Virus genome (UHGV): UHGV-0061407
From: a virus
Direction: 5' to 3' (one strand)
DNA length: 30,325 bases
Below are positions 13,277 through 19,695 of this stretch, piece by piece (position 1 is the stretch's first letter; every line of letters begins with the position of its first letter). The notes beneath the pieces were generated by a model. The model made no database searches, was not told the DNA's origin, and worked only from the letters and a program-made list of their open reading frames with translations. A program made the position numbers and the translations under genes.

Positions 13277-14332
13277 TCAAGCTTTTACAATGACACCGAT
13301 ACCCATTACCCGGTCCAGAAAACGAGCCCACAGCTCTAACTGAGTGCCATATTTCTTTTCGAACTCTGATGTATTGGCGTGTAATTCATCGTGATGCACT
13401 CTGCACAGTGGTATCACGAAGAGATCATGGGCCTTGGTGCCAGTTCCCCCCAGACCATTCCCTATTATATGGTGTGGATCGTCTGATGGTTGCCTACAGC
13501 ATTCACATGGCTGAGTTTTAACCCAACGTGTGTAAACTTCGCAGGTCCAGCGCCGGCGCTTTGGGCGGCGCATAAATGATTCGGGGCTGTTCGAATCGAC
13601 ACCAAGCCTCAGAATGGGTTTACTTTCAATCTGAGGTTGCTCAATGAGTAAACTGGCGTCCGTCAGGTCTATGCCCTCGACAAGATCCTGAAGGATTTCA
13701 CCTGCAGCAAATGACGGGACAATATCGCTATCCTTATAAACGGACAGGAAAGGTTCCTCAGGCAGTCTTAAGGCCTGTTGCGCCATCGTCTCGGTTATTG
13801 CGTCAGCAATGCCGGATTTCACAGCCCACCAGCAGAGCTCCGCCATCGATAATTCGCGCTCCTTATTGTATCCAAGGCTGATCAACACCCTTTCAATCAC
13901 CCACTGAACCAGATTCTGATAAGCCAGCTCTGACAACATTTCGGTGGTCTGCTCACGTAATTCATTATCACAATGCCAGCAGACAACCATGGCGCCAGGC
14001 GGATGCCGCATAGTCACTAATTCATGGTGGTGATAGTGGGAATGCGGGTACTGGCACTCTCTGACATGTCGTAGAAGCCAGGCCTCAAGAGCGTTAATTC
14101 CACCAGCTGCGTTAATAACCCTCTTATCCCTCATGAAAAAACGCAGAATGTCCATTTCTGCAAGGGGCTGACGTGCATCGGCGATCCGCCCAGTGGGCAG
14201 TGTTTTCATCTTCTCTGGCTGACGCTCTATCAGGACACGGCCGCCGGTAAAGAGAGACATCAATTCGCGGCCTGGTTTGAAAAGAACAACGCCCAGGCGC
14301 GGCACAATTTCCGGAGTAAGCAATGCTCGCAC
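13277..14332 (-). CDS. DUF968-like prophage protein with C-terminal His/Cys-rich motif
   Basis: 351 aa; C-terminal HHIIGNGLGGTGTKAHDLFVIPLCRVHHDELH; size and position (adjacent to Q) resemble the YdfU-type DUF968 proteins of lambdoid prophages; family assignment from memory. Confidence 0.5.
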   Translation of the reverse strand: MRALLTPEIVPRLGVVLFKPGRELMSLFTGGRVLIERQPEKMKTLPTGRIADARQPLAEMDILRFFMRDKRVINAAGGINALEAWLLRHVRECQYPHSHYHHHELVTMRHPPGAMVVCWHCDNELREQTTEMLSELAYQNLVQWVIERVLISLGYNKERELSMAELCWWAVKSGIADAITETMAQQALRLPEEPFLSVYKDSDIVPSFAAGEILQDLVEGIDLTDASLLIEQPQIESKPILRLGVDSNSPESFMRRPKRRRWTCEVYTRWVKTQPCECCRQPSDDPHHIIGNGLGGTGTKAHDLFVIPLCRVHHDELHANTSEFEKKYGTQLELWARFLDRVMGIGVIVKA

Positions 14333-14874: not shown

Positions 14875-15717
14875 TTACTGCGTGACAACGCCAATGAGCT
14901 TTAAAAGCTCAGGAAATTTCGATTCGAAGAAGTGCGGTTGCGTCTCACGTGGATTTGCCGGGCTGGTGATGTTTTTACCGTACAGACAACCTTTTGCCGT
15001 AACAGACCAGAATCTTTTCACGCCATTGATACCCGTTCGGCTGCGGCGCTCCTTCTGCTCGACTATGCCGTGACCAGCCATAAGGTGATAAGCCTGGTTC
15101 GCGGTCATTCTGATGTTGTTAGCTTTAAGCAAAGCGCTAAGAGACAGCGTTGGTCTGCTGGAACCATCCTGCGCGCCAGCTGGTGCATCAATGGCATATG
15201 AAGGCATTAAATCAGGCAGCCCTGCTACCTGCTGAAGCTTCTGATATGCTCCGAGCTTTGACGAATTAGAGAGATTGAGCATTTTGGCTGCAGATTCCAG
15301 GAGGATTATGCCAGCCTGAATGCGATCGGTATTGACGGTTGCAGCCCCAGCAGTGTGGAGCGCGTCAAACGTTCTGATGACCTTCAGATTAAAAACAGCG
15401 CTGATCCACATCGCGTAGGCATACACCAACTCACGGCAAACATAGGTACCTTGCTCATTTCCGCCGCGGATGACACTTACAGGTTCTGAAATATCCGAGT
15501 TGCTATTTTGCAACTCGCCTATCAATTGCGCAGTTTGTTCGTTACGTAGCCAGAATGCAGGCTTATGGCGGTCAAGGGAGCCGGAAGCACGATGGAGATC
15601 GTTTAGGCAATAACGACCAAGGACATCACGACGAACAGAAATACCATCAATAACAAAAAAAGTGTGATTATTGGATGCAGCAGCACCCATGACGTGGTTA
15701 GTCATAGCTTTCTCCAT
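14875..15717 (-). CDS. KilA-N domain protein (antirepressor-like)
   Basis: 280 aa; N-terminal region FFVIDGISVRRDVLGRYCLNDLHRASG...KPAFWLRNEQT...GTYVCRELVYAYAMWISAVFNLKVIRTFDAL fits the KilA-N pattern. Confidence 0.65.
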   Translation of the reverse strand: MEKAMTNHVMGAAASNNHTFFVIDGISVRRDVLGRYCLNDLHRASGSLDRHKPAFWLRNEQTAQLIGELQNSNSDISEPVSVIRGGNEQGTYVCRELVYAYAMWISAVFNLKVIRTFDALHTAGAATVNTDRIQAGIILLESAAKMLNLSNSSKLGAYQKLQQVAGLPDLMPSYAIDAPAGAQDGSSRPTLSLSALLKANNIRMTANQAYHLMAGHGIVEQKERRSRTGINGVKRFWSVTAKGCLYGKNITSPANPRETQPHFFESKFPELLKLIGVVTQ

Positions 15718-16665: not shown

Positions 16666-18749
16666 GCTGCCTGCTCCTCTCTGTTCACGCACATTTCGGG
16701 TAAGTTGGCGCGTACCAGCGCTTCGGCGAACGGTGGCGGAACGGCATTGCCACAGCGCGCGACCTGCTTATCTTTCGCGTACTTCACGCCGCGGTAATCC
16801 TGGTCAATGATGTACCACTCGGGGAAGCCCTGCGCCCGGTAAAGTTCGTGTGGCTGCAGCATGCGCATGCCGATATCAACGATGCGGTAAGTCACTCCGC
16901 CGATTTCCACCAGCCCGGTGCATTCCTCTCCGCAGTATTCCTGCAGGAACGCCAGCACCTGCTGCGCGCGCTCTTCGTCGTAGTCCTCGACCGCCAGAGT
17001 CGTTTTAACCTCCCCTACGTGCTGGCCGCCGGCAGTGATAGTCGGCATCGGCTCGTCAGTAGGCTGGCCGTCACGGCAAGTACCGCGGAGCTTGACCAGA
17101 TGAGACGTAACCATTGCGGCATCAGCCTTTGTCGTCATGGTTTGCAGTGGCTCGCTAACGTCACGTGGCCTGCTCTGCCCAGCGCAACCGCCGACACCAA
17201 CAACCTGAGCAGTAACCAGCGCATGATGATCGACAGTAGTAACTGAGTGAGTAGGTTCGTCCAGGTCAATACCGGTGCCCTGGTAGTTCCCGCCATAGTG
17301 TTTTGCCAGAAATGCCCCAACAACCGCATGTTTCCCGCCACCAGCCACAACGGTACCCAGTGGCTTATCCAGTCCTGGCACACGAGGTGCCTGGCCTGGC
17401 CGTTCCCCGTATCCCGTTTGAATGAGCGTCGGCACTACCAGCTGCGATTTACCGCCACCGCCCGCGGTGATTGTTGCGCTAGGCTCATCCGCACGGTGTC
17501 CGATGCTGGCGCCGAACTGCCGGGCGATAACCGGAGCGACGACACAGGCGCGTGATTCTTTCAGGATGGTGTGAGCGGGTTTATCTAGCGGGCGTGGTTT
17601 AGCCTGGTACTCGCTGCCGCCATTGCCAGCCAGGAACGGCGCCAGCTCTGCTTCAACAATACCCAGAGCGTGACCATTCCCGCCCGGGCGTTTTGCGGTA
17701 CCGGCCGTCACCGTCGGCAACGGATCGGTGACTTCCTGCCCGGTAGCGCCGGTTCGGAATTTTGTCAGATGAGGTACCGCAATTGCGTAGCCGTGGGTTT
17801 TCGTAATCGTCTGTAGCGGATCGTCCAGCGCCTGTCCCCGGAAACAGTCATATTTGCCACGTGTCGTTGTGTGATTGCACTTCACGATGAATGGCGAAGC
17901 ACTTTCGATAACAAAGCGCTGAATGCCGCGGGCAATCCGTTTTAGCGTATTCTCTGCCAGTGACTTTTTGCGACCGAAGATGCTCGGCGCGGGGATTGAC
18001 CAGTCTATGCATTCCGCAGCTGTACGCCACGGCTCCAGCTGGCCCGCCAGCACGGCGGCAGACTTCGGATCCCCGTGCGTGGCTTCCGGCCAGACTATCG
18101 ATTTCCCGTCCCGGCGCATCACCATGAAGAACCGCTTACGGATGGTCGGCGCGCCATAATCGCAGGCGCGCAGCTCGCGAAAATCGACGACATAACCCAG
18201 CCCGGCAATTAAGCGCTTGGCCTGCTCGCTATCCGGTGAAAACTCCAGAAACTCGCAACACTCCACCAGTGCAGGATGATCTGCTGGAATACCGGTGGTA
18301 AGCATCCCGACAAATGCATTGAAAGTTTCACCGATGCGTGCCGGATCCGGTCGCATTTCTGCCGCGAGTAACGGACCCCACGTTTTAAACTCTTCGACGT
18401 TTTCCAGCATCATGACTCGCGGGCCAACATCCAGCGCCCAACGAATGACGATCCATGCCAGCCCTCGAATAGCTTTCTCTACTGGTTTAGCACCTTTCGC
18501 TTTAGAAAAGTGACGACAGTCAGGCGAGAACCATGCCAGGCCGACAGGCTTGCCACTGGTAGCGGCTAATGGGGATACATCAAACACACTTTCGCAATAG
18601 TGAAGCGTGTCGGGATGGTTAGTGCGGTGCATAGCAACGGCGTTAACATCGTGGTTAATCGCGATATCAACGCTACGCCCTATCGCCAGCTCAATACCTG
18701 TACTGGCGCCACCGCCACCAGCAAAATTATCGACAATAATCTCACGCAT
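16662..18749 (-). CDS. DNA (cytosine-5)-methyltransferase, large, with eight internal repeat modules
   Basis: 695 aa; motif I FAGGGG, PC motif (FSPDCRHFSKAKG), ENV motif (MLENVEEF), C-terminal RCGNAVPPP; central 270 aa made of eight repeats with core D-x-P-x-x-T-[IVM]-T. Confidence 0.9.
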   Translation of the reverse strand: MREIIVDNFAGGGGASTGIELAIGRSVDIAINHDVNAVAMHRTNHPDTLHYCESVFDVSPLAATSGKPVGLAWFSPDCRHFSKAKGAKPVEKAIRGLAWIVIRWALDVGPRVMMLENVEEFKTWGPLLAAEMRPDPARIGETFNAFVGMLTTGIPADHPALVECCEFLEFSPDSEQAKRLIAGLGYVVDFRELRACDYGAPTIRKRFFMVMRRDGKSIVWPEATHGDPKSAAVLAGQLEPWRTAAECIDWSIPAPSIFGRKKSLAENTLKRIARGIQRFVIESASPFIVKCNHTTTRGKYDCFRGQALDDPLQTITKTHGYAIAVPHLTKFRTGATGQEVTDPLPTVTAGTAKRPGGNGHALGIVEAELAPFLAGNGGSEYQAKPRPLDKPAHTILKESRACVVAPVIARQFGASIGHRADEPSATITAGGGGKSQLVVPTLIQTGYGERPGQAPRVPGLDKPLGTVVAGGGKHAVVGAFLAKHYGGNYQGTGIDLDEPTHSVTTVDHHALVTAQVVGVGGCAGQSRPRDVSEPLQTMTTKADAAMVTSHLVKLRGTCRDGQPTDEPMPTITAGGQHVGEVKTTLAVEDYDEERAQQVLAFLQEYCGEECTGLVEIGGVTYRIVDIGMRMLQPHELYRAQGFPEWYIIDQDYRGVKYAKDKQVARCGNAVPPPFAEALVRANLPEMCVNREEQAA

Positions 18750-19695
18750 GAGCGGTCCCCCTCATGCTGCCGACCAGCCCACCAGCAACGGTGATGATTT
18801 CGCTGGTGGGCACGCGCTCCAGCCACAACTGGTTAATGTGGGCCTTCAGCTTGTTCTGCTGGGAGAACTCCAGATCCTCTGCGCCTTGTACCTGTCCAAA
18901 GACGAGTCCAACTTCCAGTGGCCAGATCCGGGATTCAGGCTCAGCCAATGATGCAACAGCATCGGGGATGATCACTTCAGGAGACTGAACTGGCGAAACT
19001 GGTGACAGGAATTTTCCTGCAGCAAACTCAGCCAGCACCATACTTGCGCGCCCTTTTGCTTCCAGCTCAACGCGATCGATATAGCTAAAATGTTCACCGC
19101 GCCAGGTCTTATCAAATACCGCAATGGCCCCGGCAAAGAATGCGCTGGTGGGCTTCTGCTTTTCGTCGGCCGGCACAAACCACGTTGGGAGATCGAATCC
19201 AATACGACCACGAATAAACATGATGTGATCGGCATATTCCGGCCACCATGTTTCACTTGTTGCTGACTTCACGAGGTAAATGTAACGACCACCCTTTTCA
19301 CGCTGCTCGGCGGTATAGTTCATAATATGAGTCATGCCAGTGATGGCTTGTTTTTCATGGTACTGCGAACGGCTGTACGGCGGATTAGCAAAGGCAGCTC
19401 CTCCGAGTTCTACCAAACGACCAGACCAGTCCTGCGTCAGCGCATTATCTTCAGCGGTATACCATGCCGGACATTTTGTATTGCTGTCGTCTGCAAACAG
19501 GTCCAGTACCAGCGGGCCAAACATAGCGTTAACGCCCCAGAACAGCAGATCTGGTGTCCGCCATTGATCGCCAACCTCTTTCAAATAATGCGCACTGCGC
19601 TGGCGCTGTTCCTCAAGTGCCAGGCAATAAGGGTTGATGGTTTTTGTCAAAGTTTGCTCTTCTGCGGTCATAGCTTCTTGTACTTCCTGACTCAT
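18742..19695 (-). CDS. Phage Dam-like N6-adenine DNA methyltransferase
   Basis: 317 aa; motif WRTPDLLFWGVNAMFGPLVLDLFADDSN followed by FANPPYS (NPPY catalytic motif) typical of phage Dam-family N6A MTases; 8-nt overlap with C5-MTase start. Confidence 0.75.
   Translation of the reverse strand: MSQEVQEAMTAEEQTLTKTINPYCLALEEQRQRSAHYLKEVGDQWRTPDLLFWGVNAMFGPLVLDLFADDSNTKCPAWYTAEDNALTQDWSGRLVELGGAAFANPPYSRSQYHEKQAITGMTHIMNYTAEQREKGGRYIYLVKSATSETWWPEYADHIMFIRGRIGFDLPTWFVPADEKQKPTSAFFAGAIAVFDKTWRGEHFSYIDRVELEAKGRASMVLAEFAAGKFLSPVSPVQSPEVIIPDAVASLAEPESRIWPLEVGLVFGQVQGAEDLEFSQQNKLKAHINQLWLERVPTSEIITVAGGLVGSMRGTAHA

Follow-up and report, generated by a model that had tools for sequence, protein, structure and literature searches.

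Arrays of several short target-recognition modules in one cytosine-5 DNA methyltransferase (C5-MTase) are known from orphan enzymes carried by Bacillus temperate phages (M.SPRI, M.Phi3TI, M.Rho11sI and M.H2I; also M.BssHII), which have between two and five specificities. The Trautner laboratory is said to have removed modules from these proteins without destroying the enzyme. A 2025 review credits such recognition-domain arrays to Bacillus temperate phages only, and it assigns these enzymes an anti-restriction role (PMC12707154) that we presume is shared by the protein described here. A second described group comprises phage 5-methylcytosine (m5C) MTases of ~700 aa, among them two prophage enzymes of Paracoccus aminophilus whose authors read their activity as 'relaxed substrate specificity' (Dziewit et al. 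2014, PMC3925955). We analyzed an orphan C5-MTase gene in the virus genome UHGV-0061407, a DNA of 30,325 nucleotides that is referred to in its entirety as the window. The 695-aa product is a full-length homologue of the relaxed-specificity enzymes and carries eight tandem repeat units in the position of the recognition domain. We assign a probability of about 0.55 to the reading that it is a broad-specificity anti-restriction methylase of a lambdoid Klebsiella prophage in which the breadth of targets is supplied by the array.

The protein is a complete C5-MTase, in agreement with an earlier note that was made from the DNA sequence. It matches Pfam family PF00145 (1.1e-18, 68 bits with a cutoff of 22) and two PHROG DNA-methyltransferase families (phrog_23072, 3e-147; phrog_116, 3e-102), and among solved structures it is nearest in sequence to 3g7u, an enzyme of prophage CP-933R. 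The AlphaFold2 (AF2) model shows the class I S-adenosylmethionine (AdoMet)-dependent methyltransferase fold, with a predicted local distance difference test score (pLDDT) of 85-98 in the catalytic parts, and a Foldseek search with this model places DNMT1, 3g7u, M.HaeIII and M.HhaI on top (E 1e-8 to 1e-6). All six hallmark motifs (I, IV, VI, VIII, IX and X) occur in canonical order and are invariant in 140 homologues (Table 1). Motif IX, RMLQPHELYRAQGFP (aa 629-643, RMLQPHE..QGFP), aligns to the corresponding motifs of DNMT1 and 3g7u. A helical insert of ~40 aa, TTGIPADHPALVECCEFLEFSPDSEQAKRLIAG, lies between motifs VI and VIII (aa ~150-200, window 18150-18300) and is confidently modeled as three helices. 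It is present in part of the family (e.g. P0134, P0210, P0129 and ARM81mr_p29) and missing from other members.

The repeat array begins after motif VIII and a conserved non-repeat segment of ~100 aa, and it ends before motifs IX and X. Its eight cores occupy aa 309-316, 341-348, 388-395, 421-428, 460-468, 496-504, 532-539 and 564-572, which together span window positions 17034-17825 and include every core that had been quoted from 17012-17828. The pattern [DEK]P..[TS][IVM] has exactly 8 matches in the protein, all inside the repeat region, whereas 50,000 shuffled versions of the protein average 0.12 matches and never exceed 3. Each core is followed by a variable loop, the hydrophobic strand or patch already described in the earlier note (x-A-h-V-x-x-h-L) and a G-rich tail, and the whole region is rich in G, A, T and P. 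The measured T-to-T spacings of 32, 48, 32, 40, 36, 35 and 33 aa run from 32 to 48 aa and not, as the earlier note had it, from 32 to 46 aa. The units share 16-41% pairwise identity, and no tandem repeat was found at the DNA level in the array region, where only weak matches of 15-27 nt occur at the cores. The units, of ~35 aa each, are thus old and diverged.

Eight units are typical of the family and not an extreme number. An exhaustive search recovers 8196 relatives at E<=1e-3, of which 2526 reach E<=1e-30. A hidden Markov model (HMM) built from the eight units of the window protein finds 1-12 units per protein (median 6.5) in the best 150 representatives and 6-12 units (mode 8) in 109 further profile matches, with a family median unit spacing of 35 aa. 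The suggestion that eight modules would be unusually many is consequently not borne out, and the number is high only by the standard of the Bacillus phage enzymes. Relatives occur in phages of Pseudomonas (including F116), Burkholderia, Ralstonia, Rhizobium, Aeromonas, Pectobacterium, Citrobacter, Myxococcus, Paracoccus and Nostoc, as well as in Paenibacillus and many other genomes.

Clustering of 993 units yields ~13 unit types, which are kept across phyla and very distant hosts and appear in varied combinations whose number and order differ widely. Certain neighbors are preferred: F is followed by B in 60/84 instances, C by E in 80/117 and G by C in 52/77. The arrays of most relatives end in G-C-E, with type E ('PLHTVTTKDRFGLV..IVDIGMRML') leading directly into motif IX. 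The window protein has the order A-J-D-F-B-I-G-M, and thus lacks the usual terminal C and E units and ends instead in M, a rarer type that carries a helical insert. No two units within one protein are more than 65% identical and no recent unit duplication was found, so the arrays have not grown by recent duplication.

Some members of the family have additional features. Those longer than 900 aa (P0126, P0184, P0248 and P0173) contain an intein that consists of a Hint domain, in some cases with a LAGLIDADG homing endonuclease, inserted near query residue 77 at the catalytic SPDC cysteine motif. We had considered that family members of more than 1000 aa might be adenine-cytosine MTase fusions, but rejected this since they carry inteins. 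The chromosome of Paracoccus sp. ME4 has four separate family copies (L012, L015, L040 and L049) with different match lengths. These are presumably located in four prophages, and their unit counts probably differ.

The repeat region is under purifying selection. In comparisons of the window protein with the alleles (L005, L006 and L007) of Klebsiella phages 5 LV-2017, Kpn_R1 and Kp4866-6, its ratios of nonsynonymous to synonymous substitution rates (dN/dS) are 0.082, 0.085 and 0.097, and those of the catalytic part range from 0.045 to 0.108. There are dozens of invariant or nearly invariant positions inside the units in alignments of 40-140 homologues. Because dN/dS resembles that of the catalytic parts and so many residues within units are invariant, the region is not hypervariable, nor is it a sloppy linker. 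Lengths stay within 692-703 aa in nearly all of the 120 closest clusters.

Two different deletions of one unit length occur naturally. Phages 5 LV-2017 and Kp4866-6 lack 39 aa in register (aa 437-475, window 17323-17439), so that the first half of unit 4 runs into the second half of unit 5. A stretch of 35 aa (about aa 512-546, window about 17112-17216) is missing, also in register, from phage Kpn_R1 and cluster P0097 (55 sequences), such that the C-terminal half of unit 6 and the N-terminal half of unit 7 are gone and the two units are joined. The 35-aa deletion has a 7-nt identity, TGGTTAC, at its junction, while the 8-nt identity GGTGGCGG associated with the 39-aa deletion is located ~15-20 nt upstream of the junction and not at it. 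The array therefore tolerates the in-register loss of one unit length.

Protection of many sites is known from papers on homologues, and its extension to the window protein proceeds by analogy. When expressed in E. coli, the P. aminophilus enzymes JCM7686_0772 and JCM7686_2655 are reported to give partial protection against AluI, BglI, Bme1390I, BsuRI, CaiI, EcoO109I, EcoRII, Hin6I, HpaII, MspI, HpyF10VI, NciI, PauI, PvuII, TaiI and XhoI (PMC3925955). The protected sites include AGCT, GGCC, CCGG, CCWGG, CCNGG, GCGC, ACGT, CTCGAG and GCN7GC (Additional file 8 of that paper), and the data list no protection for CGCG, TCGCGA, GATC, GGNNCC, CCWWGG, CTAG, CATG, GANTC, CCGCTC, ACGCGT or CCATGG. By our own reading of these data, half of the protected sites are without CC and some of the unprotected sites have it. 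Since CC content does not sort protected from unprotected sites, a single short motif or context seems a poor fit to the pattern.

The connection to the window protein runs through Pyei1_p05, which is given as ~69% identical to both P. aminophilus enzymes in PMC6536676. Pyei1_p05 has 41% identity to the window protein over 4-695 (E 1e-166) and contains 8 matches to the unit HMM (i-E<=0.01, 4-17 bits). Our scan of genome contigs for the P. aminophilus enzymes returned 55 relatives, from other Rhodobacterales and elsewhere, and none from that species. Another homologue, ARM81mr_p29 (46% identity, E 7e-146), has five units and adjoins replication proteins O and P. A citing paper describes this protein and ARM81ld_p31, both of Aeromonas ARM81 phages, as further enzymes of relaxed specificity and states that ~700-aa homologues are widespread, Gammaproteobacteria included (PMC5537653). 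The earlier note had suggested a highly multi-specific or hypervariable enzyme. The first half of this proposal agrees with the partial protection of many unrelated m5C-sensitive sites by homologues of the same repeat build, and the second half fails on the selection and length data given above.

A link between the units and target recognition is suggested by an ordinary enzyme. When the unit HMM is applied to a monospecific C5-MTase (sequence in PMC11954522), it finds 'DKPSPTITTQ' ~25 residues before motif IX with 6.4 bits, a match that none of 1000 shuffles equals. On the basis of this match, the unit core is the motif with which the recognition domain of ordinary enzymes ends, in a single copy, and the remaining units resemble copies of that motif. 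Together with the location of the array between motifs VIII and IX, this fits the claim that the repeats occupy the target-recognition position. A second candidate correspondence, in which the F-B junction 'GYGER...PLGTVVAGGG' would represent the M.HhaI loops 'GQGER...ITLSAYGGG', was rejected because the profile scores -1.9 bits and 1635/2000 shuffles are equal to it; the M.HhaI sequence used was confirmed.

Several results weigh against a broad specificity supplied by the array. The unit HMM aligns to the expected cores of the SPR, phi3T, rho11s and H2 recognition domains, but its scores of -2.7 to +0.2 bits are within the range of 1000 shuffles (maximum 3.2), so this comparison of units with known recognition domains reveals no significant similarity. 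Profiles of the unit (A3) and of the F-B junction (A7) match no methyltransferase in the PDB, a profile of the terminal unit with motifs IX-X (A4) aligns there over motifs IX-X only, and single units at E<=10 find no match to the recognition part of PF00145 in Pfam. The protection described in PMC3925955 is only partial, and its authors take it as relaxed specificity and not as several discrete targets. The tie to these enzymes depends on the identity figure from PMC6536676, and one homologue, Phi2LM21_p23, is reported as inactive in E. coli in the text of PMC5537653. Finally, AF2 gives no confident fold for the repeats. The pLDDT is 20-30 over aa 252-630 when 40 sequences are aligned, and an alignment of 140 diverse sequences gives 23-55 over aa 278-590 with almost no secondary structure except for a few short strands at the hydrophobic patches. 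This low confidence may reflect real flexibility in the absence of DNA or poor alignability due to unit shuffling, and the modeling result neither supports nor refutes DNA contact by the repeats.

If the array does supply the breadth of targets, then prophage induction would lead the enzyme to methylate replicating phage DNA at many different short sequences, and the progeny would reach new hosts already protected from many m5C-sensitive restriction systems. Units, or junctions of two neighboring half-units, could in turn complete a small domain beside motif IX, each docked unit or junction presenting a different recognition loop to the DNA, and the array would be flexible until DNA is bound. 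A bolder version, which we regard as tentative and rather doubtful, is that the ~13 unit types constitute a combinatorial set of miniature (~35 aa) recognition modules, that each unit or half-unit junction has its own short target, and that a disordered array folds unit by unit on DNA. If one unit or junction did equal one target, then the family would have 6-12 specificities per catalytic domain, making its members the most multispecific DNA methyltransferases known, and each of the natural 7-unit Klebsiella phage variants would be missing exactly one target.

The main rival is a single composite recognition domain of relaxed specificity, a possible but not a favored explanation. The units would fold or wrap DNA together as a scaffold with general DNA affinity and read a very short or degenerate context, and unit number would tune affinity or processivity with no targets belonging to individual units. 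The uniformly partial protection in the homologue assays (PMC3925955) is what such a domain might produce. In units of a given type, conservation is higher in the C-terminal strand and the G-rich part than in the loop that follows T-I-T, and the strong neighbor preferences, a unit number that varies as in solenoid-type repeats and the lack of significant similarity to proven recognition domains all point the same way. However, no single di- or trinucleotide sorts the protected from the unprotected sites listed there, the AF2 prediction shows no packed repeat fold even when 140 sequences are used, and the conservation of each of the ~13 types across very distant hosts fits a type-specific function better than a generic scaffold.

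Two other explanations have much lower probability. The very low AF2 confidence, the near absence of predicted secondary structure and the composition rich in G, A, T and P would suit a flexible linker or a protein-interaction region that is located off the DNA, with specificity residing only in the last unit by motif IX. We consider this very unlikely, since a linker should not have a dN/dS of 0.08-0.10, dozens of constrained positions within units or unit types conserved across phyla, nor would it retain a motif characteristic of the recognition domain in ordinary enzymes. It is less credible still that the array is a hypervariable or phase-variable specificity cassette, whose modules are reshuffled within populations by frequent recombination among repeats. 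The two independent in-register deletions with 7-8 nt microhomology at or near their junctions and the different unit orders of family members might be taken as signs of such exchange. Yet the nucleotide-level comparison found no repeats that would drive shuffling: the DNA repeats are too short for homologous recombination, within-protein unit identity is at most 65%, length is essentially fixed in the 120 closest clusters and purifying selection is strong.

The gene belongs to the early-right operon of a lambdoid Klebsiella prophage, where the replication genes lie on one side of it and the Q antiterminator on the other. Its neighbors encode a CI-like repressor, a CII-like protein, an O-like replication protein, a Dam-family N6-adenine MTase, a LexA-type winged helix-turn-helix protein, RusA, an antirepressor, an HNH protein and the Q antiterminator, and no restriction nuclease partner is present among them. 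The HNH endonuclease and the KilAC-type protein are encoded between the methylase cluster and the Q gene, and neither of them resembles a restriction partner of the methylase. The stop of the adenine MTase gene overlaps the C5-MTase start by 8 nt, so that the adenine and cytosine methylases are carried as one translational unit. The C-terminal ~90 aa of the adenine MTase match a separate PHROG, phrog_16025, and a sequence search of the PDB with this protein finds no relative. The LexA-type domain is fused to the methylase N-terminus in a 914-aa protein (P0336), and phrog_29443 likewise joins the methylase N-terminus with the LexA-domain open reading frame (ORF); by these matches the pairing of the methylase with this type of protein is recurrent. 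Proteins of 89-99% identity are common in Klebsiella and Raoultella genomes, and the gene is present in three Klebsiella phages, with 81-96% nucleotide identity. A search of complete E. coli genomes at the megablast level detects no copy.

Table 1. Features of the C5-MTase and its neighbors in the window
Feature	aa	Window position	Strand	Evidence and remarks
C5 DNA methyltransferase gene, orphan, prophage-borne, complete	695 aa	16662..18749	-	ORF list, Pfam, PHROG, Foldseek
Motif I, AdoMet binding, DNFAGGGG	7-14	18708..18731	-	sequence; D7, F9, G11-G14 invariant in 140 homologues
Motif IV with catalytic cysteine, SPDCRHFS	75-82	18504..18527	-	S75, P76, D77, C78, S82 invariant
Motif VI, LENVEEF	115-121	18387..18407	-	E116, N117, V118 invariant
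Motif VIII, APTIRKRFFMV (TIRKR at aa 202-206)	200-210	18120..18152	-	P201, T202, R204, R206 invariant; aligned to 3g7u 'APTIRTRYF'
Conserved family-specific non-repeat segment before array	211-305	17835..18119	-	many invariant residues (W220, P221, T224, H225, I248, S256-F258, R271, G275, P286, F287); AF2 pLDDT drops from ~90 to ~40 across it
Unit 1, type A, LDDPLQTITKTHGYAIAVPHLTKFRTGATGQE	308-339	17733..17828	-	unit HMM, 33 bits; type by clustering
Unit 2, type J, long loop TAGTAKRPGGNGH	340-387	17589..17732	-	unit HMM, clustering; P343 and T346 invariant among 13 divergent homologues
Unit 3, type D	388-419	17493..17588	-	unit HMM, clustering; P391, T394 invariant
Unit 4, type F, ends TLIQTGYGERPGQAPRVPG	420-459	17373..17492	-	unit HMM, clustering
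Unit 5, type B, ends AFLAKHYGG	460-495	17265..17372	-	unit HMM, clustering; P463, T466 invariant in 140 homologues
Unit 6, type I, core S in place of T	496-530	17160..17264	-	unit HMM, clustering
Unit 7, type G, ends SHLVKLRGTCRDGQ	531-563	17061..17159	-	unit HMM, clustering
Unit 8 with helical insert, type M, DEPMPTITAGGQHVGEV...AQQVLAFLQEYCG	564-612	16914..17060	-	unit HMM, clustering; AF2 strand 584-587, helix 592-606
Strands into motif IX, GLVEIGGVTYRIVDIGMRMLQPHELYRAQGFPEWYII	613-648	16806..16913	-	D625, R629, M630, E635, Q640, F642 invariant
Motif X, CGNAVPPP (GNAVPPP at aa 667-673)	666-673	16731..16754	-	G667, N668, V670, P672 invariant
Dam-family N6-adenine methyltransferase, upstream partner		18742..19695	-	PF05869 1.1e-42; phrog_111 7e-95
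LexA DNA-binding domain ORF	167 aa	16189-16692	-	PF01726 4.5e-20; overlaps C5-MTase stop by 31 nt
KilAC-type antirepressor or regulator		14875-15717	-	phrog_129
Large HNH endonuclease		13277-14332	-	phrog_96, 5e-149

By its sequence, the gene belongs to a partly characterized class of broad-specificity phage cytosine methylases. To our knowledge, no structure obtained since the description of the Bacillus phage enzymes has resolved how one catalytic domain serves several recognition modules. The family provides thousands of natural variants, built from 1-12 units of ~13 recurring types, together with near-isogenic 8- and 7-unit pairs from Klebsiella phages, and comparing the methylomes of one such pair could reveal whether each 35-aa unit corresponds to one target. 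If it does, then the units would be compact parts for methyltransferases with chosen sets of targets, and the breadth of phage methylation could be read from sequence, which bears on the host range of phages for Klebsiella therapy. If it does not, then the gene stays an ordinary member of a broad-specificity class that has already been tested. The searched text passages of PMC3925955, PMC6536676 and PMC5537653 contain no mention of a repeat array, and it seems not to have been spelled out before that this class is built on tandem units of the recognition core.

The window protein shares its catalytic fold and motifs with the monospecific enzymes M.HhaI, M.HaeIII and 3g7u, and one monospecific example also has the D-x-P-x-x-T-I-T core, in a single copy just before motif IX. 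However, monospecific C5-MTases have one recognition domain of ~80-110 aa where the window protein has an array of ~300 aa. In architecture the protein resembles the Bacillus phage MTases, in which several short modules likewise follow one another between motifs VIII and IX. The cores of those modules (SPTITT, SPTLTT, ATTLTS, SHTLSA and EPAFTVNT) are similar by eye, and the natural one-unit deletions in Klebsiella phages are an analogue of module loss in those enzymes. Nevertheless, the catalytic subfamily differs, with PDC in motif IV here and PCQ there, and the ~40-aa insert between motifs VI and VIII is a further distinction. The arrays of the present family are also longer, with 8 units here and up to 12 elsewhere, and consist of shorter, more regular units than the Bacillus phage modules.

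A comparable strategy is presumed for the nonspecific adenine methylases M.EcoGII, ARM81ld_p56 and PhiOS31_p25, in which a silent prophage gene would, on induction, blanket the DNA with methyl groups and thereby defeat many restriction systems. These enzymes differ in having N6-adenine chemistry, another fold class and no repeat array. The relaxed-specificity phage m5C MTases of ~700 aa are the window protein's own family, as they are full-length homologues with the same tandem units and are similarly orphan enzymes encoded beside a temperate-phage replication module. What distinguishes the window protein from them is its host clade, a Klebsiella lambdoid prophage here and other clades for the Paracoccus and Aeromonas enzymes, and its set of units, which is A-J-D-F-B-I-G-M here, roughly I-A-J-F-F-B-C-L in Pyei1 and K-B-G-C-E in ARM81mr.

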